63,026 bases of DNA from an uncultured bacterium. Its GTDB lineage: Bacteria; Armatimonadota; HRBIN16. A program made the position numbers and the translations under genes. Shown here piece after piece: positions 178-59,218 of the stretch. Where the stretch lies: assembly GCA_938027655.1 (NCBI GenBank), contig CALJAP010000054.1:1-63026 (forward strand), given 5' to 3'. How positions within the stretch are numbered: position 1 is the stretch's first letter; each line of letters begins with the position of its first letter. Under the pieces are notes generated by a model, which did not search any database, was not told the DNA's origin, and worked only from the letters and a program-made list of their open reading frames with translations.

Positions 178-1452
178 ATGAGTAATTCGCCATCCTGTCT
201 GAACTGCGCTTACGAGTGCAAGATAAGGGACGATCTTGCATTACTCTGGAACAGCAGAATGGTGCCAGCTGCAGACGACCCGGATTTCCATGAACTGACA
301 GACACGCTTATTTCTACACTATCCGACATGGTGAGGGACGGAGACATAACCACAGCGGAGCAGATCGGCGAAGCAATGGCAGCACTTTTCGATCTGTGTG
401 TTAGCCTGGAGTATGCCAAGATGGTTGCCGACACTGGATGGGTTTATTGTCCTCCACCCTCTGAACAGGAGAACCCCCTATTGTTCTACACATATGTCCG
501 CGCTTGTCCTCGCTGTGCTCTTTCGGGACGTAAAGTCCTCCTAGAACAGTCACATAAGCCTCGCTCAGATACAATTGGACGTATTGCAGCGAAGACAATC
601 GGCGGGTTGCTAAATGCATTGGTTAAAAGAATAGGCAATCAGTGGCAGTTATATCAGGTAGGACGACAGATTCTGGATGTCGACATGCTGATTGCAGCCA
701 ACGAAAGCATTGCACTCTGCGAAGTTAAGGCTTCTCCGCTGATTGCTTTTCCGCTTATCATGCGACTACCTCGAAGGCTGCAGCAAAGAAGACAGAATGA
801 CGAGCTACAAAACATTTCAGAACATGTAAGCACAACGTTGCCCGCAGACGATGAACTTTTCCTCTATGTTCCGGACAGCACTGTCCGGTGTCTCAGCTTA
901 GGCAAACGTTCAGACAACGGTTTCCCCATACGCAATTTTTGTCAATCTCACGCCCGCGATAAGGATACGCTGCGGGGTATTATCCAGTTCTGGCAACGTC
1001 TGTATCACGCTTATCGGCATAAGTGGAAGCAGAAAGGTGACGATTCCTTAAGATGGTTGACATTCGGCTGCGGCGGGCGAGTCGATGACTCCAAAAACTT
1101 GCCCGGACTTGACCGTACCGATGACATCAAGAAAGGCGTCTACCAGGTGCTTAAGCTCGGCGAGCATTTTGCCAAACAGTGCGCGAAGAAAGCCGTGAGG
1201 GTCGTTCTATCTGGGAACATTCATGCCGCCCGCCACCACACAGATTATCTTTCAGGATTGGAAGAAGTTATATGGACGTATGAGCAACATCTGATAGACA
1301 TGGAAGACCCCGATTGGAGAAAGGTTCGAGTAGCAGACCTTGTCAGGCTGTATGATGCTGTGTTCACTTTTACGCAACCGCACTTCCGTGACCGAACTAT
1401 GAGCGAAGAACTGGGACCGGAAGCTTTGCTGGATAGGCTGAAGGGGAGATAG
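178..1452 (+). CDS. putative restriction endonuclease-like protein (PD-(D/E)xK candidate)
   Basis: 424-aa ORF with a GGAGGA SD. It has a candidate nuclease core LDVDMLIAANESIALCEVKASP (Asp, then 13 aa, then Glu-x-Lys on consecutive predicted strands). Cys pairs are present (CLNC, CPRC). The stop lies 3 nt before the methyltransferase start. GC is lower than the flanks. Confidence 0.45.
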   Translation: MSNSPSCLNCAYECKIRDDLALLWNSRMVPAADDPDFHELTDTLISTLSDMVRDGDITTAEQIGEAMAALFDLCVSLEYAKMVADTGWVYCPPPSEQENPLLFYTYVRACPRCALSGRKVLLEQSHKPRSDTIGRIAAKTIGGLLNALVKRIGNQWQLYQVGRQILDVDMLIAANESIALCEVKASPLIAFPLIMRLPRRLQQRRQNDELQNISEHVSTTLPADDELFLYVPDSTVRCLSLGKRSDNGFPIRNFCQSHARDKDTLRGIIQFWQRLYHAYRHKWKQKGDDSLRWLTFGCGGRVDDSKNLPGLDRTDDIKKGVYQVLKLGEHFAKQCAKKAVRVVLSGNIHAARHHTDYLSGLEEVIWTYEQHLIDMEDPDWRKVRVADLVRLYDAVFTFTQPHFRDRTMSEELGPEALLDRLKGR

Positions 1453-1455
1453 ACA

Positions 1456-3270
1456 ATGTATTCGCTTGGACGTAATTGGATGCTGATCCTGAAACTCAGA
1501 AACAATATCGAACTGGAATGTGACCTTCAGCTGGCGGAAATGGAGACAGAGCATCTGTTGGGTTGCTCTTTAATTCCTATCAGCAGCTGCGAGTTAGAAG
1601 ATTTGGTTCAGCAAGGCGTTCTAAGCCCAACAGACCTCAAACATTGTCGTAGGGGAGCTGTGGTGGGGTATCGTGCCGTCGTTGAGACGCTGAATCCTGC
1701 CCTGCTTTTCCGTAGATTGTCCTTTATAGAAATTGTGGTTGGGTATACAAGTGCGGAGACAGAGCATACCAACCACGTATCGCAGCTGTTCGCCGATGTT
1801 CCTGCCTCCTTTGTACACATAGAGTTTGGAAGTGGCAAGGTGCTCTTTCGCCTTGTGCCTCTCAACGCGGTCGCCGAGTGGTCTGACATTGCGGTAAAGC
1901 GTGCTGCAAATCCGGATGAGGCAGTACAAATTGTCCAGAAAGTTGTACAGATGGTCAGAGAGGGTAAAAGCACTGTTCGATGGCATAAGGTAGCAGAGCA
2001 GGTCTTATCAGCTCGAATCACAACGGGACATCTCTTCCACGGACTTCACGTTTACAAAGCCAAGTTCTTTCCCCGCATGGTGCGCGCGCTGATAAACACT
2101 TTTGGTTCGTGCGAATCTCCGTATCTACTGGACCCTTATGCAGGAAGCGGCACAGCCCTCACGGAAGCCTCGGTGATAGGAATACCATCCGCAGGGATAG
2201 ATATCGACCCCCTTTCTGTACTGATCGCCTCGGCGAAAGCACTGCTCCTGCGAGGTAGCACAGCAGCACTATTGGAAGGCACACAGATTACCAGAGATTA
2301 TGTCGATATGCTACGTTCAAAACAGCTATCCCTTTTCTATGCGCGCGAAAAGCATGCAAATTACATCGCGCTCCCCTCCTTCCTTGCCAAACGAGTACCT
2401 CCAGAAGTGCAGGAGGAACTGCTAGATGACATAGCTATATCTTTGTCGGCGATAGAGGCTGTTAGAGGCGATTTCAATGTCCCGCTAAGGGTTGCTCTGA
2501 GCGATGCTATCTCGCGCAAGATCAAGTTTCGCTTCTTAGGCTTAGGATACGGCCGTTTCTCGCTCAGTATCACGTCGGGGCGAGTCGTTGAAATGTTTAA
2601 AAGCAATCTCGACTATCTTGCCAAAACCATTGCTGTTTGGGAATGGTTGAGAGCTGCCGCACATCTCCACTTACCTGCGTCAGAGGTAAGGGTCGGAGAC
2701 GCTCGCCACCTTCCCTTTGACGACAGAACCTTTGACCTGATTGTTACCAGCCCACCCTACATGCCAGCATCCTCCGGGCGGGAAAACTATCTGAAGAGTA
2801 AAGCGCCAGCAATGGTAGCTTTAGGCATCGTTGGCGCAGACGAAATTGAGGAGCGAGAGCGTATGCTGATAGGCTCAGTTCAGCGGTCTTGCGACGTGAA
2901 CGGATTACCACCCAGAGCACGCGAGGTCGTAGCGTGGATGGCATCTGATGAAATACGGCAGGTTAAAGCGGCGGCTACCGCGAGTTATTTTGCTGACCTT
3001 GCGCAATCTCTGCGCGAGATTCGGCGTGTACTGCGTCCGGGTGGTCGGTGCGCCATGGTTATCGCTCGCCAACATACTTTCTACCGATACAAATCGCGAG
3101 AAGTAGTGCGGGTTATTGACAATACAGGTATCGTATCAGAGCTGGCGCAGGTAAACGGTTTGGACGTGGAAAAGATTCTTCACGTCGAGCTGAACAAACA
3201 GAACACGGTAGCACGTCCTCGCTCGCTTGATGCCTACTACGAGACAATCTTGGTACTGGGGCGAGGATGA
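1456..3270 (+). CDS. SAM-dependent DNA methyltransferase (N6-adenine/N4-cytosine type), atypical long form
   Basis: 604 aa. Motif I is LLDPYAGSGTALTEA and catalytic motif IV is LIVTSPPY, about 200 aa later. A downstream LRPGGRCAMVI strand is present. About 200 aa at the N-terminus are unassigned. Confidence 0.75.
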   Translation: MYSLGRNWMLILKLRNNIELECDLQLAEMETEHLLGCSLIPISSCELEDLVQQGVLSPTDLKHCRRGAVVGYRAVVETLNPALLFRRLSFIEIVVGYTSAETEHTNHVSQLFADVPASFVHIEFGSGKVLFRLVPLNAVAEWSDIAVKRAANPDEAVQIVQKVVQMVREGKSTVRWHKVAEQVLSARITTGHLFHGLHVYKAKFFPRMVRALINTFGSCESPYLLDPYAGSGTALTEASVIGIPSAGIDIDPLSVLIASAKALLLRGSTAALLEGTQITRDYVDMLRSKQLSLFYAREKHANYIALPSFLAKRVPPEVQEELLDDIAISLSAIEAVRGDFNVPLRVALSDAISRKIKFRFLGLGYGRFSLSITSGRVVEMFKSNLDYLAKTIAVWEWLRAAAHLHLPASEVRVGDARHLPFDDRTFDLIVTSPPYMPASSGRENYLKSKAPAMVALGIVGADEIEERERMLIGSVQRSCDVNGLPPRAREVVAWMASDEIRQVKAAATASYFADLAQSLREIRRVLRPGGRCAMVIARQHTFYRYKSREVVRVIDNTGIVSELAQVNGLDVEKILHVELNKQNTVARPRSLDAYYETILVLGRG

Positions 3271-24961: not shown

Positions 24962-25019
24962 CGTTGCCGGTACCTCTTCGGTGGAGATTCAGAACGGCAC
25001 AGCGTGCTGTTCCACCATT

Positions 25020-25048
25020 AGTATATCCTGCGGTCATGCAGAGTGCAA
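25020..25048 (-). promoter_or_regulatory. promoter candidate for hflX
   Basis: The reverse strand reads TTGCAC, a 17-nt spacer, then TATACT. The -35 box begins 6 nt after the stop of the upstream 183-aa ORF. Confidence 0.5.
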
Positions 25049-25053
25049 GCATT

Positions 25054-25605
25054 TTAGATGTCACGCGGGTCTTTGGGGAGACCTATGCGCCCAAAGTAGA
25101 AGGCAAATGCTTGTGCCATCTTCTCACGGTACGGCGGTAACAAGCGTACGCGCTCGCCACGTCGCCGCGAAAACTCCTCCAGAAAAGCCTTTGGGACAGG
25201 AGTGACCAGCCGAAAGTCGATGACACGCTGTCCGAACTCGTGCTTTTCTATTTCGCACGCTTCAATAAGGTGATATGCCAGAACACGCCCTTTGCGGATA
25301 TTAGCCCGCTGCTCCTTTCGGACAGCAACCTCTAAAGCGTCTCGGTGGGGACATACGAGTAGCCTGTCCAGATCGGGCTTCGGGATGTCACAGCTGTGAG
25401 TTAACACGATGATATCGGCAAATACAATGGTCGTGTTCACGGCAGCAACAGGGTGCTCTCCTTGCAAAAGCTCAAGAAAAAGTGTAGTATCTGGCAACGC
25501 TGCAATCGGGCAATCGAAGAAAATATCACCTTGCTGGAGAGGTTCATCCGCACCCACAAGCCGATACCAGGGATACTCCTCCGGTTCCACCCGCCTACTC
25601 CGCAT
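25054..25605 (-). CDS. hypothetical protein, third gene of a low-GC cassette
   Basis: 183 aa with motifs QQGDIFFDCP, IIVLTHSCDIPKPD and LLPPYREKMAQAFAFYFGRIGLP. I cannot name a family. An alternative GTG start at 25590 is preceded by GGAG. Confidence 0.6.
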   Translation of the reverse strand: MRSRRVEPEEYPWYRLVGADEPLQQGDIFFDCPIAALPDTTLFLELLQGEHPVAAVNTTIVFADIIVLTHSCDIPKPDLDRLLVCPHRDALEVAVRKEQRANIRKGRVLAYHLIEACEIEKHEFGQRVIDFRLVTPVPKAFLEEFSRRRGERVRLLPPYREKMAQAFAFYFGRIGLPKDPRDI

Positions 25606-25897
25606 GAACGGATTTCAGAAATTGTTCATCCTCATCACCCAGCGGTGGAAATTCTAGGCGTCCGCCAATGGTGTAGGAGACTCGTATCTGCATTGTCTTG
25701 CCAGGCTTTAGCAATGGCGGATTATCCATCCATCCGTTGCTAACCCGGTCGGTAACTGGTGTTTGTTCGAAGATGGCAAGCTCCTCGGAGGCAGCGGTGC
25801 GCCTGATAGAAAAATCTCTCAAGGGGAGCTTTGTCACCGCGCTACTCCCTGAGGTAGCGGGTGGCACCATATAGGTAGCAGTGTGTGCCTCTGCCAT
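25595..25897 (-). CDS. hypothetical small protein, second gene of the low-GC cassette
   Basis: 100 aa. The ATG directly abuts the upstream stop (TAGATG), and a GGAGGAGG SD lies 8 nt upstream. The C-terminal tail is acidic (LGDEDEQF). Confidence 0.55.
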   Translation of the reverse strand: MAEAHTATYMVPPATSGSSAVTKLPLRDFSIRRTAASEELAIFEQTPVTDRVSNGWMDNPPLLKPGKTMQIRVSYTIGGRLEFPPLGDEDEQFLKSVHAE

Positions 25898-26635
25898 CTA
25901 CCTGACCTCCTCCAGAATCTCGCGCGTCTTGTCTGTGATACACGCTTCGAAAGCTTCGTACACCGAACCATGCGCTCTTTCCAATATGGAGTCTACCACA
26001 GGAAAGTCCCAGGCAAACTCTGGTGTCAGATATTCCAGATCGAGGAGAACAGCTATACCTGCTGAGGAGGGCAGATATGCCAACCCGGTGGTTGCGGTAA
26101 GTACGTCCTCACCCTCACAAAAGAAATCCTGCCTCAACAAAAACGCTCCCCTCTGCTTTCCGATATTCGGTGAGGTGGGATAAAGAGCGAACCACTCTGC
26201 CAGGTCAACTTGTGTGGCAGTAAACTCGAAGCGGTTGATATAACGCAATACAAGCGTAGAAGGTTGAACAGAAGGCAAAGCCTCATGCAGGCATTTCAAC
26301 GACTCCAGAACATAGGGCTTGAAATCATGCCAGCCGGTATAGGGAGCCAGTTGATTCACAGTGAACGAGTTTGGTCCCAGATGCAGCAGCTTCTTGCCGT
26401 CCGCATGTTTATAACGCATAAGCACAGGAGGATGCAAAATGCGTGTTTCCTTCGCGCTGTGGTCTACTTGTAGCGCAAAGGTAGGTATCTCCTCAGTTTG
26501 CACGAATCCCATCTGCCTCACTGCTGCCATAAGCATACCATAGCAGGCAGTGTTCCAGTCATCAGGCGTTGCAAACCGCACCTCACAAAGAGCCTCTAAG
26601 ATGCGGGGTTTATTGTATTTTCTCTCCACAACCAC
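25898..26635 (-). CDS. hypothetical protein, probably of the uncharacterised TIGR04255-like family (first gene of the cassette)
   Basis: 245 aa with a GTG start. The N-terminal PRILEALCEVRF pattern and the length match my recollection of TIGR04255. No catalytic motif is recognised. Confidence 0.6.
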   Translation of the reverse strand: MVVERKYNKPRILEALCEVRFATPDDWNTACYGMLMAAVRQMGFVQTEEIPTFALQVDHSAKETRILHPPVLMRYKHADGKKLLHLGPNSFTVNQLAPYTGWHDFKPYVLESLKCLHEALPSVQPSTLVLRYINRFEFTATQVDLAEWFALYPTSPNIGKQRGAFLLRQDFFCEGEDVLTATTGLAYLPSSAGIAVLLDLEYLTPEFAWDFPVVDSILERAHGSVYEAFEACITDKTREILEEVR

Positions 26636-26697
26636 CAGTGCTCATCCCTTCACCCTTTAGTGTACCACTATTCTTAGTTGTGCAATATCATCCCGTA

Positions 26698-27492
26698 TCA
26701 GAACCTTACTACGTACAGATTCACTACCGCTTCGGCGGTATACGTTTCCTCCTCGCTGCCGAACTGTTCGCGCACGTAGCGTAGCGTCTGTTCCATGAGT
26801 TCCCGATGCGCCTCGTCGGGAATGTCCCAGAGCTGGGAATAGGTACGCTTCTCCAGTTCCTGCAGAACCTCCCGGTGAGTGCGTCGCGCCTGCCAGCGCA
26901 GGGAGGGATGCTCGATAAGGGAGACCGCTCCGCCTATCTCTCGCACGTACTCCAACGCTTCATCCGCGCTCTGCGCCCCCAGCGTCGGACGCAACAGCCC
27001 ACGCTCACCCGCCAGCTGCATGTAGTACTCTCGCGCCGGAAACCGCTTACCGCTTTCATAGAGCAGAAACAGCATACCTTCTTGCCGCAGCACGCGGCGG
27101 CACTCCTGAAGCACCTCGCGCCAGCCTGCAATTAGGTGCAGCACATGCGCCACCAGCACCGCCGAGATAGAGCGCGCGCGAACCGGCAGGTTCCTCAGGT
27201 CTGCTTGTGCCAGATACAGATTACTAGGGGGGCTCTTGCGCAGCAGCTGGCGCATCATCTTGCGCGACACGTCCAGGCCCAGTACGTTCACGCCACGCCG
27301 CGCTATCGGAAGCGCAAAGCGCCCCGTGCCTACCCCTGCGTCCACAAGCCAGTGACCGGGGGCGAGAGAGGCTGTGGAGTGAATCTGCTCCACCACCGCC
27401 TCCCGCACCGACTCCGGCAGGAATCGGGTTGCATCGTAATCCTCAGCGACGCGATCGAAGCTGAGATACTGGCTTAACGGCTCTGTTTCCAT
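26698..27492 (-). CDS. class I SAM-dependent methyltransferase
   Basis: Motif I is LVDAGVGTGRFALPIARRG. Acidic post-I (LGLDVS) and post-II (QADLRNLP) motifs are present. Confidence 0.8.
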   Translation of the reverse strand: METEPLSQYLSFDRVAEDYDATRFLPESVREAVVEQIHSTASLAPGHWLVDAGVGTGRFALPIARRGVNVLGLDVSRKMMRQLLRKSPPSNLYLAQADLRNLPVRARSISAVLVAHVLHLIAGWREVLQECRRVLRQEGMLFLLYESGKRFPAREYYMQLAGERGLLRPTLGAQSADEALEYVREIGGAVSLIEHPSLRWQARRTHREVLQELEKRTYSQLWDIPDEAHRELMEQTLRYVREQFGSEEETYTAEAVVNLYVVRF

Positions 27493-28253
27493 CGCTCCAC
27501 GATACCGCGCACGTAGGCGTAGGATTGCGCTACTCGCTCCAGCTGCTGCTCCTCGGTCAGGTTCTCACCCTCGATGCCTTCCAGTTCCATCGTGAACGGT
27601 CCTCGGAAGCCATGTTCCAGCAACAGCCGGAAGATTTCAGGGAAATCCACGACGCCCTGCCCCAGCGTGGGAAAGTACCACGTGCGTGGCTTGCCGTTAG
27701 TATCTTTCAGATGCACGCTGAAGACGTGAGGCAGCACTTTTTGGATTTCGGTTACCGCGTCCGCGCCCTCGTTATAGTAGTAGATGTTGGCGGTATCGAA
27801 GTTAATGCCCACGTTCGGATGGGCGATGGCTTGCATGGTGCGTGAAGCGATGCTTCCGTTGGTGATGAGGTCGGGATGCGTTTCCATTGCCACCTTTAGC
27901 CCAAGTTGTCCGGCGATGTCGCCCAATCGGCGCATGCGACGGTACACATCCGAGAGAGGCAACTCGCCGGCGTGCACGCTGACGAAGGCGATTTGCGCTC
28001 CCATTCTCTGTACCGCTCTAGCAATAGGAACGAAGTCCTCTGCGCCCTCGTCGGAAGAGACATCGCAGGGGCATATTACGCTGGAGATACGCAGACCGTG
28101 AGGCTCCGTCTGCTTCAGCCACTCGTCGGCATCCTCTGGCTTGCCAATGCTGACCTCGACATAACGAATGCCGATGGCTTTCATGTGCTCAAACGCCCGT
28201 TGGCGGTATCTGCCGTAGCTGTATACGTTACAGGCGAGAATAATGTCGTCCAT
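27474..28253 (-). CDS. sugar phosphate isomerase/epimerase (xylose isomerase-like TIM barrel)
   Basis: 259 aa with motifs typical of the family (FVSVHAG, AMETHP, NFDTANIYY, VHLKD, ELEG). Confidence 0.78.
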   Translation of the reverse strand: MDDIILACNVYSYGRYRQRAFEHMKAIGIRYVEVSIGKPEDADEWLKQTEPHGLRISSVICPCDVSSDEGAEDFVPIARAVQRMGAQIAFVSVHAGELPLSDVYRRMRRLGDIAGQLGLKVAMETHPDLITNGSIASRTMQAIAHPNVGINFDTANIYYYNEGADAVTEIQKVLPHVFSVHLKDTNGKPRTWYFPTLGQGVVDFPEIFRLLLEHGFRGPFTMELEGIEGENLTEEQQLERVAQSYAYVRGIVERWKQSR

Positions 28254-28313: not shown

Positions 28314-30128
28314 TTACACCCCGGTGATTTTGCGCAGGCGGCGCAGAGAGGCTCCGATCACGCCCGGCGAGCGCGAGGCGTCTCCCAATCGGCGCAACAG
28401 ACGGGCGAACCAGCTGCGGCGGCTCAAGCCTGTGTTGGTGCTGGCGGCACGACGGTCCTGTTCCGAGAGGCGATAGTCAAAGCCACCGTGCAGTATCGCT
28501 AGCTGGAACCAGTACTCGAACAGGTGGATGTCTGCGACTTTGCCTTTTCGCAGTTGAGCAGGCAGGCGGCTCAGCAGGGCGCGAGGTAGGTTCCATTCAC
28601 CGCGACGGTTGAGCAGGTCGGTACCGAAGAAGTCGCTCACCTTTTGCACCAGATACAGCATCCCCCTGTCCACCACCAGGTCTAGGGGCAGCGGGATGCC
28701 CACATCCCACTCTAGGTCAATGACCGTTACCTCGCCACCCTTTTCGTTCAACAGGCAGTTGCGCGGGGTGAGGTCGAGACTGTCGGGAGGGAGCCACTGG
28801 GTAGTCGGCGTGTACGGGGCGCGCCCCAATCTCTGCACACAAAACGCCCTGAACCGCTCGTTGTAATCGTGATAGCCTTCGGGAACAACCCGTGCCAGCA
28901 AGGTGGCATACCAGCGAAGCAGAGCGGAAGCAGCTTCGGCATAGCGCCGATGCCACAGGCTGTCAATGAACAGATGTTCGATGTTTTTCAGGTGCTGGTA
29001 GTAGGGTTCTCTGTAGTCACTGTGCAGGTGTATTGGCGCAGGGCGATTCAACCACTCGCCGCGCGTCGTCTCTACCGTAATACGGTCGTCCTCCTTCAGG
29101 AAGAACTTGGTCTGGCGGAAAGGGGGCGCGCACTGGCTTCGTATCTTTACCGCCAGGATGGACTCCCATTCCTTCGGCATCGGCTGGCGCGAGGCAATAA
29201 CCAGAAAGGAGTTCATGAAGGCGGAAGGTGGCGCGTTCCTCGCTATCATGCGTAAGAACTCGCGCTCGTTGAACAGAGGACGCTGACGCAGCGAATAGTC
29301 TACTGTGGGCAGGTTCAGCAACGTCAACCAGTCAAAGCCGGGTTCGCTAAAGCTGTTCTCGGCGAGAATCACATCGGGCATCTTGTAATCGGGAAAAGGG
29401 TAGAACCAGAGTTGACAATGTAACCCCGCATCCTCCAGTTTGCTCTGCAGTAATCCCTTATCGAAGGTGCGGATGCCGTTGTAGTCGGGATAGCCGGAAA
29501 CGCTTTCAAAGGGCACGCCGTAGTGGTCCTCGCGATAACCCGCCAGATATTTGTGCCCGATGGGGTTTTCGATGGCGATGACGAGCCTGCCATCGGGACG
29601 TAGCCAACGGCATAACAGGTTAATCAGATGGGAGGCGGCATCGGGACGTGCGATATATCTACCCGCGTATTCCAGCACGCCGATCAGCAAGATGGCATCG
29701 AACGGCTCGGGGGGATGATAGTCTTCGATATTGGCGGTCACCACTTCGAGGTGTGGGGCGTGTCGGCAGCGAAGGCGTAGCAGTTCGGCACGCTGAGGAG
29801 CCCCTTCTACCGCCACAACGCGACCGACAGCGGGCACACGACAGAGGTAGGAGGTAATCGCGCCGCAACCGGCTCCCACTTCCAGCACGTGCAGCCCATC
29901 TCTATCAGCAGGCAGCCAGCTGACAATGTTAGCGCGGGCAGGGGAGAGGTGGTACGAGAGCGGCCACCAGTTGTACTCCATCCAGGTGCGCTGTTCGTCG
30001 AAATCGTCGCGCTGGAAGATGGTGTGCAGAATCACCTCCGCGCCATCCGCGTACTGAAACGGCGCGCCGGCGGAAAGAGTGCCGGTGGATGTGTGTTCCT
30101 GCGGGGTCTGCGCCGCCGATTTCGTCAT
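28314..30128 (-). CDS. bifunctional methyltransferase / kinase-like protein (WbdD-like architecture)
   Basis: The N-terminal class I MTase domain has VLEVGAGCGAITSYL and LRPDGRLVIAIEN. The C-terminal half has a kinase-fold catalytic-loop-like LDLTPRNCLL and VIDLEWD, followed by an Arg-rich tail. Confidence 0.6.
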   Translation of the reverse strand: MTKSAAQTPQEHTSTGTLSAGAPFQYADGAEVILHTIFQRDDFDEQRTWMEYNWWPLSYHLSPARANIVSWLPADRDGLHVLEVGAGCGAITSYLCRVPAVGRVVAVEGAPQRAELLRLRCRHAPHLEVVTANIEDYHPPEPFDAILLIGVLEYAGRYIARPDAASHLINLLCRWLRPDGRLVIAIENPIGHKYLAGYREDHYGVPFESVSGYPDYNGIRTFDKGLLQSKLEDAGLHCQLWFYPFPDYKMPDVILAENSFSEPGFDWLTLLNLPTVDYSLRQRPLFNEREFLRMIARNAPPSAFMNSFLVIASRQPMPKEWESILAVKIRSQCAPPFRQTKFFLKEDDRITVETTRGEWLNRPAPIHLHSDYREPYYQHLKNIEHLFIDSLWHRRYAEAASALLRWYATLLARVVPEGYHDYNERFRAFCVQRLGRAPYTPTTQWLPPDSLDLTPRNCLLNEKGGEVTVIDLEWDVGIPLPLDLVVDRGMLYLVQKVSDFFGTDLLNRRGEWNLPRALLSRLPAQLRKGKVADIHLFEYWFQLAILHGGFDYRLSEQDRRAASTNTGLSRRSWFARLLRRLGDASRSPGVIGASLRRLRKITGV

Positions 30129-35455: not shown

Positions 35456-38305
35456 TCATTGCATCCTTTCTTCCATTCTTAGTGCAACGATACCCAACCT
35501 GGGTATTCGAACAGGCTTGCCCAGTGAGACAGCCTGCCCGCTCACGGCGTCAATAAAGCGTTGTGCTTTCACCGGCAAACGTGCGCCGCTGATGCGGACT
35601 TCGGCTTCACGCATCGGGTCAAAGTTGAGAAGGAAAATGGCGAGTCTGCCCCTGTACTCCCACGCAATCGGCAAAACGGTCTCCGGCGCAGCGACTGCCT
35701 CGTCAGGCAATTCCACTCTCCTCCCCTCCAGAAACCAGTCCTCAAACTGGGCGATGATACCACTGGCACGGGCAAGGGCATTGTTAAACCTTCCGTCGAA
35801 GCCGCGATACGACCAGAAGTGAATGCCACGATAGCCAGCAGCAATGTGCTGAACCATCTGCAATGCGGTCAAGTCAGGGTAGTGGTAGTTATAAACCTCA
35901 CTGACACGAGTGTAACCCACAGAGAGCATCGCCCAAAGCGGGGTACCAATTTCGCCGACCATCTCCACCGAACGAACAGACTCTTGATGCAAAGTCGTTC
36001 GGCTGGTCATCGGGGAGTTGCAGTAGCGGAAGAACATTCCACCACGAATGTAAGGCAGAACTTTCCGCCAGGGTAAACGCCCCTCGATGATGACATTACT
36101 GTGGACAGGTGGACCTCCATTAATGTAAAGCCCGGTGCCGGGGCGCTCCTTTTCTATTCGCTCCGCCCACTTCTTCACCATGCGCTCCGTCTGGCTCAAA
36201 GCAAACTCAACCCACTTCTCACGCAAAGTAGCATCGTGGCGAATCACTTCAAAGTCCAGTTTCCGCTCCGGCTCAACCTGCGCAAACTGACGAAATGCCC
36301 TCAGACAACGATGACAAAAGCACACATGCCAAACATGCGGACCTTCCAAATCCCAGTTCCAGCCAATCGGTGAACCCTTGTCGTTGATAATGATGTTGCG
36401 AAAGGCTTCCTCAAAGGCTTCGCTATCTTCAGCCAGCAAAACCTCAGGGCAAACCATCCCAAGTTGCAAATCGGCAGGCTTGCCCTCTGCGTCGATGGCG
36501 GCGTCTTCTGGGTGCTTCTTCAAATATTCGGGCACCCACCAGAACCACCAGAAACTTCGCATCGTTGCAATTCCATACTCTTTCGCCAATGCATCAAAGC
36601 GAGCATCTTGCACGCCTTCTTGCAATCCTGTAACGCCCAGCTTTTGATAGTGCGCCAGCATCTCTTTCCAACCCGATTCAGGCAAGGCAGGTCCGTGAAG
36701 CCAGATAAAGATGGGGATTCGCCTGGGCTGACGCCCGATTTCCGGTGGCAGGACGACGAGCGGGATTTTCCTAGTCGGCTCCACTTCATCGCTTCGACGA
36801 ACGGTCGTGTAAAGAAAACTCTTGTGTGGCAACTTCATCCCCTTCGGGGCTTGCGCCTTGAACCACAGGAGCAAAGGCTGCATCCAAAGGTCTACCTTGT
36901 CAATCGTCGTATGCGCAGGTGGCGTTTTCACCTCAATGCTGACCCTGCGATAACGCTGACCATCTCGAACTGTCCAATCCCGCTTAATGTCGCCAATCTC
37001 CGGGCAGTTGCCATGCTCCCTTTTGGTAGGTGGGTCTAAAACTTCCATCCATTCGGGTATCTCAATCACTGCCTCATAACCTTGTTGCCTGCCTTTTGCG
37101 TCGCTGACGAGAAGCCAAAAGTAAGCCAGTTGACCATCGGAGATGTAAAAAGTGTTTCCGTAAACTTCCACAGGCCAGAGGGCACTGGTTAAACTACCAC
37201 GACCGGGATGGTAAAATGGGATGACCGTCTCTACCGTTGGTTGCTTGGGAACTTGCAATTTGACGGTACAGCGGTAAGGTGCTGCAGGTAAGTGCGCGGG
37301 AATCTCGTAGAGCAAACTACCTGTGTGTGTGACTGGCAGCCTCACCGATTGTCCCGCCAGCGAAATCGTCACCTCAGTGCCTGCCGGCATTGGGACGTGG
37401 GGAGTGAGCGCAACCGTCAGCTGCGTTTTCGCATCCCTCGTCTCAATCAACCCTATCCCTTCTAACCGAACAGGCGCCAATCCAAAGACAATTCGCCCAA
37501 AGCGGTCTGGTTCATGGAAGCCACCTCTCACTGGAGCCCAACTCGTTGTCTCACTGTGGGCGCGCTCTTCACGGTTGAAGTTGATTCCGAAGCAATCGCC
37601 CCTTTTCGGCGACTTTGCGCCGATTGTCGCGAAAGGAATCGCCATCTCAACCGTCCAGCCCTTCTCTCCCCTGTGCGCGGAACTTCGCCAGCGACTATGG
37701 TAGCCGTAATCATCCCAACCTACCCCTAACGGATTGACAACAGCGTGGAAGTAGTAAGACGGCTGCCCCGAGACATCAGGTTGGATGAAGACCTCCACGC
37801 AGTCATCCTGCCAGACCGGTGCTGATGGGTCTTTGTGGGCGATGCGAAGTAAGTCCATTCTATCTTCACGGCAGTCGAAGGCGATGTAGAGGTTCTCGTT
37901 ATCGTAGGCAACTTGTGCCGTCGTCCATTGCGTAGGGGGCTTGTCCGTGCCAAGCCGATGGCCAAGCGTCACCTTTTGCGCCCTTTTCCAAATGTTATCG
38001 TCCAACTGTCCATCTATTTTCGGCGCCATCCCTTTTGGCACTTCGACGGCATAGATGAACGGGAGCAACCCAGGTTGTGGTGTGGGCGCGGTCATCATTC
38101 TACTGCCCTCACCTGCATCTGCTTCGACACCGAACACACCCAGACACGAAGCAATTGAGAGGCACGCTGCTGGCAATCGCCCTGTGCTCGCGCTTTCCAC
38201 ACCACGCCCCCCCAAGCTGCACACAGATACAGCAAGTAGCAAAAGGGAGTTCATCCATCCCCTCACCACAAGGTGTGTCCTTCCCATGTTAAGCCCCCTC
38301 AGCAT
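35456..38305 (-). CDS. large secreted protein with an N-terminal CBM9/DOMON-like module, function unknown (glycan-active?)
   Basis: 949 aa with a signal-like N-terminus. It has a DGQLDDNIWKRAQ sugar-binding-module-like start and a Cys cluster HVCFCHRCLRAF. GC is lower than the backbone. Confidence 0.6.
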   Translation of the reverse strand: MLRGLNMGRTHLVVRGWMNSLLLLAVSVCSLGGRGVESASTGRLPAACLSIASCLGVFGVEADAGEGSRMMTAPTPQPGLLPFIYAVEVPKGMAPKIDGQLDDNIWKRAQKVTLGHRLGTDKPPTQWTTAQVAYDNENLYIAFDCREDRMDLLRIAHKDPSAPVWQDDCVEVFIQPDVSGQPSYYFHAVVNPLGVGWDDYGYHSRWRSSAHRGEKGWTVEMAIPFATIGAKSPKRGDCFGINFNREERAHSETTSWAPVRGGFHEPDRFGRIVFGLAPVRLEGIGLIETRDAKTQLTVALTPHVPMPAGTEVTISLAGQSVRLPVTHTGSLLYEIPAHLPAAPYRCTVKLQVPKQPTVETVIPFYHPGRGSLTSALWPVEVYGNTFYISDGQLAYFWLLVSDAKGRQQGYEAVIEIPEWMEVLDPPTKREHGNCPEIGDIKRDWTVRDGQRYRRVSIEVKTPPAHTTIDKVDLWMQPLLLWFKAQAPKGMKLPHKSFLYTTVRRSDEVEPTRKIPLVVLPPEIGRQPRRIPIFIWLHGPALPESGWKEMLAHYQKLGVTGLQEGVQDARFDALAKEYGIATMRSFWWFWWVPEYLKKHPEDAAIDAEGKPADLQLGMVCPEVLLAEDSEAFEEAFRNIIINDKGSPIGWNWDLEGPHVWHVCFCHRCLRAFRQFAQVEPERKLDFEVIRHDATLREKWVEFALSQTERMVKKWAERIEKERPGTGLYINGGPPVHSNVIIEGRLPWRKVLPYIRGGMFFRYCNSPMTSRTTLHQESVRSVEMVGEIGTPLWAMLSVGYTRVSEVYNYHYPDLTALQMVQHIAAGYRGIHFWSYRGFDGRFNNALARASGIIAQFEDWFLEGRRVELPDEAVAAPETVLPIAWEYRGRLAIFLLNFDPMREAEVRISGARLPVKAQRFIDAVSGQAVSLGKPVRIPRLGIVALRMEERMQ

Positions 38306-38419: not shown

Positions 38420-40855
38420 TTATGGCGGGTTCTGGTCAATGGGAACGACAAAGATTTCCCTTGCAGCGCGACCGCCTTTTGGTCCTTTTCCGCTTTGAAG
38501 AAAGCGCAAAATGTACTCACCTGCGGAAGGGAAAGTGGCCACCAATTTGACCAGTTCACCATCCATGCTACCACCGATTTCATGGAGCAACGTTTCTTTA
38601 CCATCAGCCCGTGAAAGGACGAACACGCCGGGACGCCCCCATATTCCTACCATCGCATAAATGATGTGCTCTTTTCCCGCCTGTTCAGGCTTTATTAGCA
38701 ACTTCCACTCAACGCCTCTTTCTGGGTCATCAACCGCCTCGCTTTGCCCGAACTCAAAAACCCACTCCTGTGACAACCCTTTGGGGTTCCAGTAACTTGG
38801 GATGCTGACGCCATATGCACGGATGCCTTGCCCCGTAACGGCATAATCAGCGCACTCTCCCACAAGTCTTCGCAGCGTATCTTGCTTTCTTGCTTCCTCC
38901 TCCTGCCTTTGTCGCCACAGTTTGAGCAAACCAATCGCCACCTTCGCTTCCCGTTCCCGGTAACGCTGGCGCAGAGTTCGCACAAGCTTTTCGTCATCGG
39001 AAACAAGCACCACCTCCGCTACATCCAATCGCTCCAGTTTAAGAATCGTTTTTGCACTGGATGGAGACAAAGGCAACCTCTCAAATCCTCGCTCAGTTAC
39101 CCTCCACGCAAAGCGAGGCGTCAGCCACGGCAACCTCGGTATTTCAACAGACACCGATTTCGTTCGTACCCGAAATGCCTTTGCCTCTTGCGTGTAGTCT
39201 TCGTTGATGATGACCAAAAGCAAAGCCTTTTCGCCTGCAACTAGAGTTGAGACCAACACTTTATCGTCTCCTGTCTTTGCAATATCGGTCGGATGGGAAA
39301 GCGCAAGCAAAGGGGCGATATGTTCCTGCTCACGGTAAGTGCGCCCGATGGCGTGCCAAACATCAGGGAATTCGCCGCTTCCACGGTGAAGATAGGTCGC
39401 CGTCTTTTCCGTGTGATGCCCGTAGCCGAACAATCCCCTTGCGCCCGCTGCGATAGCGTAAAGCATCATCAATCGCTCCTCGCCTGCAAAAGGCGGGCGG
39501 GGGAAACGCATCTCTGCTCTTCGCCGCTCATCGTAAGGCTCTTCATAGCAGCTTTGGAAAGTGAAAGTCACAGGACGCGGTCCAGCGGCATATCGCACTG
39601 TCTTCACCACTTCGTAAACCATCTTTGCATCTTCACCAAGGCTCAGGGGATAGCAATCCGAATTGGCGAAATCGGCAACAGGAGCGTAGATGTAGAAGTT
39701 CGCGGGCTTGAAAGTTAGGTCAATCGTTAAAATCGTCATCGTCTGCGGGTCGGCCTCTCGATACATTTGGCAACGTCGCTCCATCTCCATTGCGAGGTAG
39801 CCGACGCGCTGCTCCATTGGCAACTGTTTTGCCTCAGAGTAATCGCCGACATCGGGTTCATCATAAGGGCAGTACGCGAACACACCGGGATGACCGACCA
39901 TGTAATCATCGGGCGGTCTGTCGCCCAAAATCATTACGGCTCGCATCGCCAACAAAGCGTGAATGTCAAGGTCTTCTTTTCTGTGCCGACTGAAGTTATT
40001 GTGTCCGTTACAGCCATTGCGGGCGTAATCTTCATAAGTTCCGTATCCGTAAGAGCCAAGCGGAACCCAACCGTCGTAGGTTCGCACGCAGCAGGCTGCC
40101 GCTGCCTTATCCGAAACATCCACCCGGTAGATATGATATGAGCCGTAGCGAAGGGGCTGAGGAAGGCGCAGAATAATCGGCGAGATACCCATCTCAAAAG
40201 TCGGGTCTAAAAATCGGCACAGTTTGGTCACATCTTTGCCGTCCAGCCAAACCTGAACCGTTTTGCGGGGCTTTCGGTCGAGGGATACAACCACGAGAAA
40301 AACCTCGTCCATTCTGGCGTTGAACCCAACCGTTTCTATTCGGACAGGGCAGGGCGTTGGAGAAATGTGCGCTGTCACCCACGACCCATCGTCAAATTCA
40401 ATCCGCAAGGTCTGTTCTTCCGTAATAGGTTCACGAGTTCGCACCAAAACCTCACCTACAGCGCCGACGGGCAAGGGTCTTGGGAGCAACCGCCACCAAA
40501 CGACTTTGCCTTCCCCCCGCAACTTCTCCAAAGACTGACCGTTGAGATAAAACGCTGTCGGAGCAATGGGGCGACGGCTTTCGTTTTTGACATAGGCGCA
40601 GAGATAGCCTGCCGCTTTGTATCCCTTCGTGAAAAAATCTTGAAGATTAGGCGCTCCCTCCGACCACCGATAAGGCGTTCCCCGATCGGGCATCCAGTAG
40701 GCAACATCAACCTTCGCTTGTGCCGATGAGATATTGGCGGTTGCCATTAGCAAAACCGAGGCGAAGCACAGGCACCAAATTGGTTTCACTCCGACGCCAC
40801 CTCCATGTTTAATTTGCAGGAGTGACGCAGTTGATGTAAACTCACCTTTGCGCAT
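38420..40855 (-). CDS. large secreted hypothetical protein (possible glycoside hydrolase-like)
   Basis: 811 aa with signal peptide ...CLCFASVLLMATANISSAQA. A likelier start is the GTG at 40789, preceded by GGAGG. GC is lower than the backbone. Confidence 0.6.
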   Translation of the reverse strand: MRKGEFTSTASLLQIKHGGGVGVKPIWCLCFASVLLMATANISSAQAKVDVAYWMPDRGTPYRWSEGAPNLQDFFTKGYKAAGYLCAYVKNESRRPIAPTAFYLNGQSLEKLRGEGKVVWWRLLPRPLPVGAVGEVLVRTREPITEEQTLRIEFDDGSWVTAHISPTPCPVRIETVGFNARMDEVFLVVVSLDRKPRKTVQVWLDGKDVTKLCRFLDPTFEMGISPIILRLPQPLRYGSYHIYRVDVSDKAAAACCVRTYDGWVPLGSYGYGTYEDYARNGCNGHNNFSRHRKEDLDIHALLAMRAVMILGDRPPDDYMVGHPGVFAYCPYDEPDVGDYSEAKQLPMEQRVGYLAMEMERRCQMYREADPQTMTILTIDLTFKPANFYIYAPVADFANSDCYPLSLGEDAKMVYEVVKTVRYAAGPRPVTFTFQSCYEEPYDERRRAEMRFPRPPFAGEERLMMLYAIAAGARGLFGYGHHTEKTATYLHRGSGEFPDVWHAIGRTYREQEHIAPLLALSHPTDIAKTGDDKVLVSTLVAGEKALLLVIINEDYTQEAKAFRVRTKSVSVEIPRLPWLTPRFAWRVTERGFERLPLSPSSAKTILKLERLDVAEVVLVSDDEKLVRTLRQRYREREAKVAIGLLKLWRQRQEEEARKQDTLRRLVGECADYAVTGQGIRAYGVSIPSYWNPKGLSQEWVFEFGQSEAVDDPERGVEWKLLIKPEQAGKEHIIYAMVGIWGRPGVFVLSRADGKETLLHEIGGSMDGELVKLVATFPSAGEYILRFLQSGKGPKGGRAAREIFVVPIDQNPP

Positions 40856-47933: not shown

Positions 47934-47970
47934 AATGCCATCCCCATATTGGCAGGATGTTTCATTCGTC

Positions 47971-48001
47971 TGTCATTCTGAGCGGAGAGAAGAATCTCAT
48001 G
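47971..48001 (+). repeat. dispersed repeat module B
   Basis: tgtcattctgagcggagagaagaatctcatg. Confidence 0.85.
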
Positions 48002-48046
48002 TTATCACCACAGGGAACGGCATTAGCCGTGAGGAGACAGCCACAA

Positions 48047-48073
48047 CGGCTCGGCAGGAGCCTCGCTCTCCAC
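48047..48073 (-). repeat. dispersed repeat module A (reverse orientation)
   Basis: The plus strand reads cggctcggcaggagcctcgctctccac. Confidence 0.85.
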
Positions 48074-48085
48074 AAGGAGAGCGAC

Positions 48086-48366
48086 ATGGTAGCGAACCTG
48101 AAGTTAGTCTGCCGAAGGGGTGTAGCAAAGATGTTGCCATCGGGAAATGTGTATTTACGCTGGAAGTTTGGTGCAACGAAGGATGCTTCCTTCTTTCTTC
48201 TCGCCGTCTGGCTACAGCAGCCGCGCAATGCCCCGCGCTTCAGGCAAGCGGGCTTCAACCTCTACGTGGGCTTGTGGCAGGGCACCACAGAAGAGCAGCT
48301 CTCCACCCGGCGCGAGGCGAAGATGCCCGTCTTCTGCGAGCAGAACGCGGTCGGCTTGTACGCGCG
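48086..48366 (+). pseudogene. possible 5' remnant of a glycoside-hydrolase-like gene
   Basis: AAGGAG, 6 nt, then ATG. The ORF encodes ...FFLLAVWLQQPRNAPRFRQAGFNLYVGLWQGTTEEQL..., resembling a first beta/alpha unit of a TIM-barrel GH. Its continuation runs antisense into the histidine kinase gene. Confidence 0.3.
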
Positions 48367-49410
48367 TCACTCATCCAGCAAGGAAACCTTCCTTGCCTTA
48401 CCCGCTGGCAGGGTAAAAAGCACCGTTGTGCCCTTACCCAGTTCGCTCTCGATCCAGATGCGCCCCTTCTGCGCTTCCACCGCCAGCTGGCAGAAAGTGA
48501 GCCCCAGTCCGGTGCTGGCTCCCTCTTTACGTGCCTCCACCTGCGCGTACTTGTCAAATACCTTGTCTACCCACTCTGGAGGAATACCCGGACCCTGATC
48601 GGTCACGCTGAAGGTCACCGTTGCTCCTTCCGAGGCGCGGGTGCGGATGGTGACGGTGGAATCGGGAGGGCTGTACTTCAGCGCGTTACTCAACAGATTC
48701 ACCAGCACGCGCGTGGTGATGTCGGGGTCGGCAATGACGGTGTTGACCTGCGGGTCGGTTTCATACACCATTTGTACACGGTTCTGCGCCGCCCACAGCG
48801 CCACCACCGCAAGCGAGTTATTCACCACCTCGTCTACGCTTACCTCTTGCCTCTGCACCGGCATCTTGCGGTGCTCCAGACGGGGCAAATCGAGCAGGGA
48901 GTTAATCAGGGTCAACATGCGATTGCTGGAGATGAGTGCCATGTCCAGCATTTCCTGTTCCGACTCGTCCATCCTGCTCTCGCGCATCTGACGCAGGGTT
49001 TGCAAGCCGGTCAGCACGTTGGTGAGCGGCGAGCGCAGGTCGTGGATGATAAAATGCATCAGCTCCTCATGGCGTTTGCGCGTCGCCAGCAAACCCGAAA
49101 GCATATAGGTGACGGTCAGGAAGATGGCGGAGCGCACCGCCAGGTTCCAGTAGGGCACGACGCCGGCGGTGTCATGGGTGGTGCTGAGCACGTCCGCTGC
49201 AAACCATGCTATCGCGCTGGCGACCGCCAGAACCACGCCCGGCTTCTCACCCGCGAACCAGTCCACCAGAATAATCGGGATAAGGTAGAGAATAAGCAGG
49301 TCCGGCTCGGTGAAGTAGTCTATTGTGGTGATGATAGCTACCAGCACCAGCCCTAAAGCAATCCAGAAGTGTCGGGAACGTTTGCTCAAGAAATCAAGAA
49401 GTGTGTGCAC
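48367..49410 (-). CDS. membrane sensor histidine kinase
   Basis: About 4 TM helices, a HisKA H-box (HFIIHDLRSPLT), and HATPase_c N, G1 and G2 boxes (NALKYS, DQGPGI, GLGLTFC). Confidence 0.88.
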   Translation of the reverse strand: MHTLLDFLSKRSRHFWIALGLVLVAIITTIDYFTEPDLLILYLIPIILVDWFAGEKPGVVLAVASAIAWFAADVLSTTHDTAGVVPYWNLAVRSAIFLTVTYMLSGLLATRKRHEELMHFIIHDLRSPLTNVLTGLQTLRQMRESRMDESEQEMLDMALISSNRMLTLINSLLDLPRLEHRKMPVQRQEVSVDEVVNNSLAVVALWAAQNRVQMVYETDPQVNTVIADPDITTRVLVNLLSNALKYSPPDSTVTIRTRASEGATVTFSVTDQGPGIPPEWVDKVFDKYAQVEARKEGASTGLGLTFCQLAVEAQKGRIWIESELGKGTTVLFTLPAGKARKVSLLDE

Positions 49411-58153: not shown

Positions 58154-59218
58154 ATGTTAACACGGCGATACGGCTTGCTACGCATCTTTGCTTCGTTTGT
58201 TATCCTGATGCCCGTCACAAATGGCTGGGCTCAGAGGAACGACGACTCCTCTTCTCAAGACGCCTCCGCGCCTATTCGCTTTGTACAGATACTCCAACAA
58301 CTGAGTAGCAAGATGTCGGATGGCTTGCTTGCGGAGTGTTACTACTCTGACGAACTACTGATGCCCCCGAACGCGATGGCTCTACGTAGCAGCGCGGACA
58401 TCCAAAGCGTTGCAGCAGCTTATCATCGTGAGATTGTGCGCACGGGCAACACATTCGTCCTACGTGTCGGTCAACAGGCACCCCTAATGTTCAGCCTGAC
58501 CTTCAAACGAAAGCAGGAGCAAAGAAACGCCTCGCTATTTTCGGCAGTGTGGTGGAAGGGAACAGAATACGACCAGATGGAAATTCGCGTGAGCAAGAGC
58601 GAAGAGGGGGTAATGCGGGTTTTCGTCAAAGCGATAGCAGTACCTCTATCCAGATTCTGCGAACGGTTCTCCAAAGAGACGGGTTGGCGGCTACAAGTGG
58701 AGCCAGATTTACAGGCAGTGCGCATTTTTGCCAAATGGCGATCTGCGTCGCCAGGGGAGGTGATAGAAGCTATCTCGCTGTTGCTGCGCAGTGAGGTACA
58801 GGTATCTTTCTCGCGCAGTGCAGAACAGAAGCAAGCAGAACAACGTGCAGTGGAGGAAGAAGAGGTATCTCTGGCAGAACATGCAAAGATTACATACACA
58901 CGCGCGAAGTATACGGAACAGCTGCTACCGGAGTTGCTGAACGAGCTGACACCAGAGGAACTGGAGCGGCTTCGGCAAGGACAGGAGGTGGAGATCCCTA
59001 TTTCCCGTTTGTCGCCAGGTCTGAGTGACCGCGCCTTGCGTTTCGCAGCAGACTTATGGGATGCCCTATTTGCAACAATGGAACCTTCGGAAGGGGAGGT
59101 GTTTGTGAGAGAGCACCTGCGCGAATGCGAGCCAGTACTTCTGCTACCCACGCCGCAACGGAGTAACCTGGGCATTCGTCTCAGAAATCCTTCTAATGGG
59201 GAGGAATACGTGCTTTAA
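58154..59218 (+). CDS. secreted hypothetical protein with a secretin/TonB N-terminal (STN)-like segment
   Basis: AAGGAGG SD and a signal peptide. The segment FCERFSKETGWRLQVEPDLQAVRIFAKWRSASPGEVIEAISLLL resembles STN/FecR-partner domains. A Glu-rich coiled region follows. Confidence 0.55.
   Translation: MLTRRYGLLRIFASFVILMPVTNGWAQRNDDSSSQDASAPIRFVQILQQLSSKMSDGLLAECYYSDELLMPPNAMALRSSADIQSVAAAYHREIVRTGNTFVLRVGQQAPLMFSLTFKRKQEQRNASLFSAVWWKGTEYDQMEIRVSKSEEGVMRVFVKAIAVPLSRFCERFSKETGWRLQVEPDLQAVRIFAKWRSASPGEVIEAISLLLRSEVQVSFSRSAEQKQAEQRAVEEEEVSLAEHAKITYTRAKYTEQLLPELLNELTPEELERLRQGQEVEIPISRLSPGLSDRALRFAADLWDALFATMEPSEGEVFVREHLRECEPVLLLPTPQRSNLGIRLRNPSNGEEYVL

Follow-up and report, generated by a model that had tools for sequence, protein, structure and literature searches.

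A compact cassette of three coupled open reading frames (ORFs) lies on the minus strand at positions 25054–26635, upstream of hflX, in a 63,026-nucleotide stretch of DNA (here called the window) from an uncultured Armatimonadota bacterium (GTDB lineage HRBIN16; contig CALJAP010000054.1 of assembly GCA_938027655.1). Our analysis indicates that this cassette is probably a mobile, tripartite, toxin-antitoxin (TA)-like conflict module, in which the third gene (g3) would encode an effector with a MazF/CcdB fold, the second gene (g2) a protein that neutralises it via a C-terminal module, and the first gene (g1), a member of the TIGR04255 family, a sensor or regulator linked to g2. The proposal builds on the observed anatomy of the operon, the co-occurrence of its genes across phyla, its foreign composition, the predicted folds, and a natural fusion of a Phd/YefM domain with the g2 module. 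The features of the cassette are as follows:

25898–26635, minus strand: g1, 245 aa from a GTG start, TIGR04255-family protein
25595–25897, minus strand: g2, 100 aa, small acidic protein, putative antitoxin or adaptor
25054–25590, minus strand: g3, 178 aa from a GTG start, putative toxin with a predicted MazF/CcdB-like fold
25605 (ORF 25054–25605), minus strand: alternative ATG start of g3, 183 aa, 11-nt overlap with g2
25913–25906, minus strand: Shine-Dalgarno (SD) sequence of g2, GGAGGAGG, within the 3' end of g1, read from the sequence
25601–25598, minus strand: SD sequence of g3, GGAG, 7 nt 5' of the GTG, adjoining the g2 stop codon
24962–25053, minus strand: spacer from the g3 stop codon to the hflX ATG, 92 nt, with a weak promoter-like pair
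26636–26697, minus strand: spacer from the upstream methyltransferase gene to g1, 62 nt, no terminator called

The three ORFs of 245, 100 and 183 aa had been reported in a preliminary description of the window, and the ORF list confirmed them at the same positions. The TAG stop codon of g1 (25900–25898) abuts the ATG of g2 (25897–25895), and the GTG of g3 at 25590 lies 4 nt past the g2 stop codon; this TAGATG junction, the SD sequence inside g1 and the choice between an 11-nt overlap and a GTG start 4 nt downstream were seen in the sequence as first described. Because its relatives are 175–178 aa long, g3 more likely starts at the GTG (178 aa). Adjacency, co-direction and coupling, by which type II TA modules are recognised, were all found for g2 and g3. 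Operon statistics were compiled on 89 loci (designated by numbers with the prefix L), with g1 counted in the 78 that have enough upstream sequence. A TIGR04255 gene was found on the same strand, 300–450 nt upstream of g3, at 48 of these 78 loci, which represent many phyla; overlap at the junction is a conserved feature, with g1 and g2 sharing 4 nt at 15 of 35 loci and 1 nt at four.

Predicted fold of g3 and conservation of g2

The structure of g3 was modelled with AlphaFold2 at a predicted local distance difference test (pLDDT) score of 86.9 and a predicted template modelling (pTM) score of 0.81. In a Foldseek search of the PDB with this model the top matches were to MazF of S. aureus, B. subtilis, B. 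anthracis and M. tuberculosis; MoxT was matched too, and CptN, Kid and CcdB came after MazF, with a best E-value of 5.5e-4, a probability of 1.0 and target-normalised template modelling (TM) scores of 0.6–0.72. On this model g3 is predicted to belong to the MazF/CcdB structural superfamily, with an SH3-like barrel, and its predicted likeness to MazF is at the level of the fold alone. No Pfam match was found for g3 at E <= 1 or for 41 diverse relatives at E <= 0.1, PemK/MazF and CcdB included; neither g3 nor these relatives matched any model in Pfam, NCBIfam or PADLOC, and g3 had no match in PHROG. The preliminary description had reported no nuclease signature, which holds at the level of the sequence but not for the predicted fold, which is that of MazF-type endoribonucleases.

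The residues conserved in the g3 family are unlike the MazF set. Invariant positions are Y9, Q20, G21, C67, R149, P153, E156, Q160, R168 and P172, Asp68 and Cys80 are nearly invariant, and a C-terminal strand-helix (RLLPPYREHLxQAFAxYFMRVGLP) is strongly conserved; in the sole local alignment with MazF, which was not significant, the catalytic positions of MazF are occupied by neither Arg nor Thr in g3. The g3 motifs quoted in the preliminary description (QQGDIFFDCP, IIVLTHSCDIPKPD and LLPPYREKMAQAFAFYFGRIGLP) are present, but the His/Cys/Asp catalytic cluster proposed from them was not borne out, as the His is replaced by Gln in most relatives and, of the three residues, only Cys67 is invariant. 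All three proteins of the cassette are acidic family-wide (median pI 5.2–5.7), which is no less compatible with a protein poison of the CcdB kind than with an RNase of the MazF kind.

The g2 protein consists of a variable N-terminus, a conserved C-terminal module (C-module; KTMQIRVSYTIGGRLEFPPLGDEDE) and an acidic tail, the pattern of the module being a basic beta-strand region followed by Pro and then by the acidic tail. An iterative search with g2 against all ORFs stalled at four matches, and clustering and a position-restricted profile were used instead. Of 83 small ORFs in the position of g2, 62, including g2 of the window, fell into a single component in phmmer single-linkage clustering. 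The C-module profile was found on site, directly upstream of g3, at 66 of 89 loci, compared with 2 of 4,513 control ORFs. Eight loci, five of them missed by the strict profile, were re-inspected, and all eight carried a positional analogue of the same C-module pattern, seven as separate ORFs and one, at L065, as a tail on g1. This last ORF (L065:5172-6005) encodes a TIGR04255 protein of 277 aa with a g2-like C-terminal tail and abuts g3; judging from its sequence, it is probably a g1–g2 fusion. Within the same genomes g2 diverges faster than its partners (54–59% identity versus 73–79%).

No match to g2 was found in Pfam, NCBIfam, PADLOC or PHROG. Among 56 relatives of g2, a recognised antitoxin or DNA-binding domain was found in L076 alone, where an ORF from a member of Planctomycetota (L076:1489-1860) carries a Phd/YefM domain (E 6.7e-11) N-terminal to the g2 C-module, with no TIGR04255 gene upstream; this fusion argues that the g2 module belongs to an antitoxin. 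Second g2-like copies (50–54 bits) were also observed in two loci from Poribacteria (L081:6012-7005 and L054:7053-8758), where they precede a 219-aa unknown protein and a protein with AlbA_2/Schlafen and HATPase_c_4 domains; these copies may pair with other effectors or may be orphan antitoxins.

The conservation pattern bears on another explanation, namely that g3 is a Cys-dependent enzyme or binding protein acting on g2 as its substrate or precursor, with the TIGR04255 protein as a partner, in the processing or modification of a protein or peptide. Such a role would suit the invariant Cys67 and nearly invariant Asp68 and Cys80 in a family where the MazF catalytic residues are not recognisably conserved, the hypervariable N-terminus and conserved C-terminus of g2, and the acidity of all three proteins. 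We consider it unlikely, because most relatives lack the His of the proposed triad, the predicted fold of g3 matches toxins and not hydrolases or peptidases, the Phd/YefM fusion indicates an antitoxin, no conserved transporter or maturation genes are found nearby, and two-gene versions without g1 are common. The presence of CptN (4rmo) among the fold matches of g3 raised a further alternative, a type III arrangement as in ToxIN and CptIN, in which a repetitive antitoxin RNA would lie upstream of g3 and the g2 ORF would be spurious. This alternative is effectively refuted: searches found neither tandem repeats nor an Rfam match, the module encoded by g2 is conserved as a protein across phyla in a position-specific manner, and g2 has a strong SD sequence and a coupled start.

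TIGR04255 and its downstream partners

The first gene of the cassette scores 102.6 bits with the NCBIfam model TIGR04255, whose cutoff is 30 (E 3e-29), and residues 6–241 of g1 align with positions 1–251 of the 252 in the profile, so that the assignment given in the preliminary description was correct. The AlphaFold2 model of g1 (pLDDT 93.2, pTM 0.89) predicts a duplicated beta-alpha-beta(n)-alpha fold of the TBP-like or AdoMetDC-like type. In Foldseek searches the likeness to PDB entries (AdoMetDC prozyme, TBP, Med18/20 and Bet v1/START proteins) was topological alone, with TM <= 0.32, and one unnamed viral protein was matched with a TM of 0.48–0.56; the predicted fold has no solved relative and its matches give no functional lead. 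Invariant residues of the family are E14, L96, R131, Y132, N134, D199, F229 and T234, and the conservation of the polar ones (E14, R131, Y132, N134, D199 and T234) suggests a defined binding or active site. Neither Pfam nor fold searches found a helix-turn-helix (HTH) or ribbon-helix-helix (RHH) domain in g1, and the acidity of the families argues against g1 as a DNA-binding repressor. There was no Pfam match to SecB either, and none of the fold matches (AdoMetDC, TBP, Bet v1-like) is to SecB. A literature search for TIGR04255 found no paper mentioning the family in the library covered.

The modularity of the cassette was sampled in seven distant TIGR04255 lineages. In three of them (L092, L098 and L111) g2 and g3 lie downstream, and in the other four there are three different downstream sets. 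At L093:4001-5836 and L094:4001-5831 the TIGR04255 gene is followed by a pair of genes for proteins of about 180–190 aa and 167–198 aa, which are unrelated to g2 and g3 and have no Pfam match; this is a second cassette type that has only the first gene in common with that of the window. At L113:1260-4696 a hydrophobic, membrane-like protein of 127 aa is encoded downstream. At L115:1070-7758, in what is a moron-like position of a prophage, the TIGR04255 gene and a gene for a 214-aa unknown protein are flanked by portal/prohead-protease (S78) genes on one side and by a probable capsid gene of 495 aa on the other. We tentatively propose that bacteria and archaea, Asgard and DPANN lineages included, could share a large and so far unrecognised class of modular multi-gene conflict systems, in which TIGR04255 would be the conserved subunit, serving as sensor or regulator, and the effector modules would be interchangeable. 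The commonest of these modules would be an undescribed MazF-fold toxin with a dedicated small antitoxin or adaptor; the cassette of the window would be the founding example.

Two side observations concern the first position of the cassette. Upstream of the TIGR04255 gene at L113 there are Methyltransf and AP_endonuc_2 genes, as there are upstream of the window cassette, which could reflect an insertion hot spot or coincidence. At four loci of Planctomycetota type (L021:4721-5518, L075:303-1025, L080:4827-5510 and L058:3-488) that lack TIGR04255, the first position is filled by a family of about 240 aa (NxSVxIVAxxHNPTILHP...VRYTAVGVNF). We compared this family with TIGR04255 as a possible divergent member and obtained an hhalign probability of 1%.

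Distribution, composition and genomic context

A word-indexed search with g3 retrieved only 15 related clusters. An exhaustive profile search was far more sensitive: among representatives of clusters at 50% identity, 2,536 scored E <= 1e-3 and 1,360 scored E <= 1e-10, almost all of them single-domain proteins of 165–220 aa. At least 535 g3 loci were found in species-representative genomes of bacteria and archaea. The bacterial range includes Armatimonadota, Acidobacteriota, Chloroflexota, Planctomycetota, Nitrospirota, cyanobacteria and bacteria of the candidate phyla radiation (CPR), and the archaeal range Methanothrix, Methanoperedens, DPANN and Asgard lineages, among them Promethearchaeum syntrophicum MK-D1. 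Two-gene versions, with g2 and g3 but without g1, are common and occur in Methanothrix, Asgard and other lineages. There is no conserved fourth gene at the cassette loci. Signs of decay were also found: in another Armatimonadota metagenome-assembled genome (MAG; L011:4793-6378) g1 is intact, g2 is present as remnants and g3 lacks about 50 N-terminal residues, and g3 is split in L016, L072 and L080. In IMG/VR, 12 contigs carry g3 and five of them also g1. Searches of PLSDB plasmids and cultured-phage genomes gave no matches, which indicates that the family resides mostly in uncultured lineages.

The composition of the cassette deviates from that of its surroundings. Its GC content is 51.9% against 58.8% for the window, which corresponds to the 3.5th percentile of windows of the same size (z = -2.1). 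A clearer signal is the GC content at third codon positions (GC3), which is 0.54 in each of the three genes, compared with 0.70–0.72 in neighbouring genes and a median of 0.724 for long ORFs. The preliminary description was right about the direction of the deviation and overstated its size: its estimate of 42–52% covers the lower half of the real range of 60-nt samples, 42–62%, whose mean is 52%. Across loci, the GC content of the cassette is below that of its flanks in 57 of 62 cases, by 7 points on average (p = 3e-11).

In four genomes (the window, L001, L002 and L010) the cassette is syntenic, lying between a methyltransferase gene and hflX. As no terminator was called between the methyltransferase gene and g1, the cassette is part of a co-directional gene string. 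The methyltransferase gene (26698–27492, minus strand) overlaps the upstream AP_endonuc_2 gene (27474–28253) by 19 nt, and a 604-aa methyltransferase gene at 28314–30128 joins the same-direction string, which runs through the cassette into hflX. On the hflX side, the preliminary description had noted a −35 box 6 nt past the g3 stop codon and no terminator, which is what we see; the likeness to a promoter is weak. The pair consists of TTGCAC (25048–25043) and TATACT (25025–25020), separated by 17 nt and matching the consensus at 3/6 and 5/6 positions, and a promoter and terminator scan called no minus-strand site in the 24962–25053 spacer. No Rfam match or tandem repeat was found in this spacer.

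This conserved arrangement is the basis for a very unlikely explanation, a lineage-specific housekeeping or stress role tied to the neighbouring genes (hflX, methyltransferases and AP endonuclease), for example in ribosome or RNA quality control. The synteny with the methyltransferase genes and hflX in the four genomes, the missing terminator between the cassette and hflX, and the unrelated TIGR04255 cassette L113, which also follows Methyltransf and AP_endonuc_2 genes, are in its favour. However, the flanks are unrelated outside the clade of the window, the low GC3 is retained even in the syntenic Armatimonadota relatives, where it is likewise foreign, a related Armatimonadota genome carries the decayed copy (L011), and the family is patchily distributed over two domains of life.

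Over the whole set of loci the flanks are heterogeneous: 200 Pfam families were found among the 150 nearest ORFs, none of them in more than four. The sole recurring theme is that of defence and TA genes, namely Type III Res and Mod, Schlafen/AlbA_2, PIN, HTH and PD-T4-6. At L077:2772-9111 the order is mod, g1, g2, g3, res on one strand with overlapping ORFs, which in sequence looks like a single operon, and similar or partial arrangements, with the cassette adjoining a Type III mod or res gene, were found at L042, L040, L028 and L089. Integrases or integrative elements lie beside the cassette at L090–92 and L097/98, one type of element around it being characterised by integrase, excisionase, SSB and ImmA-type genes, and at L008 a MNT/HepT pair adjoins it.

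It is plausible, though less likely than not, that the cassette is specifically an abortive-infection or anti-phage system, in which TIGR04255 would sense a phage cue and, via g2, free the g3 effector, other TIGR04255 cassettes using other effectors; such a function would refine the TA-like module proposed here and does not exclude it. The conserved first gene with swappable downstream modules, a membrane-like protein among them, is consistent with this function, as are the location within or beside Type III restriction-modification operons, the vicinity of integrases, proviral genes, MNT/HepT, PIN, Schlafen and PD-T4-6 genes, and the AT-richness of the cassette relative to its hosts. On the other hand, g1, g2 and g3 had no match in PADLOC-DB v2 at E <= 1, and 41 relatives of g3 gave scattered single matches at chance level (E >= 0.0055), so that no PADLOC model covers them; the flanks are mostly ordinary genes, the copy in the window has no defence neighbours, and cultured phages and plasmids gave no matches.

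The TA-like conflict module would work as follows. The g3 protein would be the effector that arrests growth, either as an RNA-cutting enzyme like MazF or, like CcdB, as a poison of a protein target, and g2 would be its cognate neutraliser, the conserved C-module binding g3 and the variable N-terminal part providing the link to g1. The g1 protein would be a conserved accessory partner, probably with a sensing or regulatory role in which it determines how stable or active g2 is, and the same TIGR04255 protein would be combined elsewhere with other downstream modules. In this scheme we infer the toxicity of g3 and its neutralisation, the target of g3, the role of g1 and any anti-phage function.

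Several observations weigh against this proposal. For g3, the query-normalised TM-scores are just 0.42–0.46, owing to about 60 extra residues, hhalign gave a probability of 0.2% with MazF/Kid sequences, a profile search of PDB sequences returned 0 matches, and the catalytic Arg and Thr of MazF are not recognisably conserved in the family. Nucleases that bind RNA and regulators that bind DNA are not typically as acidic as these proteins. The g2 protein of the window has no recognisable antitoxin or DNA-binding domain, and the statistics of the L065 fusion are weak (best E 0.036). The length of g2 did not depend significantly on the presence of g1 (p = 0.16), and on this result we gave up the view that g2 has a long N-terminus where g1 is present. 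Finally, defence-type neighbours make up a minority of the flanks, and in the clade of the window the cassette sits between housekeeping genes, with no mobile or defence neighbours.

The preliminary description had named four outcomes that would speak against an undescribed, horizontally mobile accessory or conflict cassette, and none of them was observed. The families co-occur (g1 upstream of g3 at 48 of 78 loci, the g2 module at 66 of 89 loci versus 2 of 4,513 controls); they do not sit in a conserved metabolic operon, given the 200 Pfam families among 150 flanking ORFs with none in more than four; structure searches assigned no housekeeping pathway and matched g3 to toxin folds; and the composition is distinguishable both within the window and across loci.

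Other parts of the window deviate in composition as well. Two adjoining plus-strand ORFs at 178–3270 have a GC3 of 0.51, the minimum of the window; the first (178–1452, 424 aa) has no Pfam match and the second (1456–3270, 604 aa) has partial matches to N6_N4 DNA-methylase and SAM-methyltransferase, so that this region may be a foreign restriction-modification-like island. Low GC3 (0.55–0.56) and no Pfam family were also found for the ORFs at 38420–40855 (minus strand, 811 aa), 47935–49356 (plus strand, 473 aa) and 58154–59218 (plus strand, 354 aa), and an ORF near the first of these (35456–38305), with a CBM9 domain, has a GC3 of 0.59. The low-GC stretches at 36–41 kb and 57–59 kb may be further acquired regions.

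Relation to known systems

The closest parallels are MazEF, Kis-Kid and CcdAB, in which, as in the cassette, the small gene upstream shows translational coupling to the gene for a protein with the MazF/CcdB barrel, here a predicted one. MazE ends in an acidic tail, and so does g2. As with type II TA modules in general, the distribution is scattered and mobile, and one relative of g2 has a classical Phd/YefM domain. In contrast, g3 has no sequence similarity to PemK/MazF or CcdB, the catalytic Arg and Thr are not identifiable in it, and it is about 60 residues longer, with a conserved C-terminal strand-helix and an invariant Cys; g2 of the window differs from the antitoxins of these systems in having no DNA-binding domain, and a third gene is usually present.

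The third gene invites comparison with two groups of three-component systems. The gene order of toxin-antitoxin-chaperone (TAC) systems is antitoxin-toxin-chaperone, and in regulator-first systems, such as omega-epsilon-zeta and PaaR-PaaA-ParE, the accessory gene comes first, as g1 does in the cassette. TIGR04255 has no HTH or RHH domain. With TAC systems, including CmdTAC, the cassette would share three co-transcribed genes and a third protein beside toxin and antitoxin, a protein that is needed according to the reports on TAC systems (PMC9098466, PMC11618068). In contrast to the TAC chaperone, TIGR04255 is not SecB-like, is acidic and also combines with unrelated downstream modules.

The exchange of parts resembles that of the hyperpromiscuous NetFlax/PanA TA networks (PMC10440598), although the domains differ: the g2 C-module is combined with Phd/YefM, probably with TIGR04255 in a fusion, and is found upstream of other proteins, and TIGR04255 occurs with at least four downstream sets. 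With ToxIN/CptIN the likeness is the weak resemblance of the g3 fold to CptN (E 0.036); the putative antitoxin is a protein here and not an RNA repeat array. TumE-TumA (DUF6516) was likewise recognised as a TA superfamily from 'dark' families (bioRxiv 10.1101/2023.03.14.532539), in that an unannotated family is given a TA hypothesis via its genomic context. According to the same study, TumE has an alpha+beta fold with a 7-stranded sheet, no PDB match above a TM of 0.5 and its own Pfam model. We rejected g3 as a TumE protein, as none of 41 g3 relatives matches this Pfam model and the described fold differs.

The cassette is new in two respects: the sequence families of g2 and g3 are sizeable and unannotated, being absent from Pfam, NCBIfam, PADLOC and PHROGs, and none of the resources queried describes a three-gene architecture in which TIGR04255 is the swappable component. 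Cultured organisms, plasmids and phages hardly ever carry the family, and for this reason it has been overlooked until now. If g3 is a toxin, the MazF/CcdB superfamily gains a new, widespread branch, which is found in both prokaryotic domains, numbers at least 2,500 clusters (50% identity) and is set apart by its conserved chemistry, with Cys-Asp and a C-terminal helix rich in Arg. Should TIGR04255 prove to be a sensor or regulator that can be swapped between modules, the cassettes would constitute a new family of conflict or defence systems with three components, and layered immunity would be clearly exemplified by their repeated nesting in Type III restriction-modification operons. In its logic the cassette follows known TA and defence modules, and the predicted fold of g3 is a known toxin fold.

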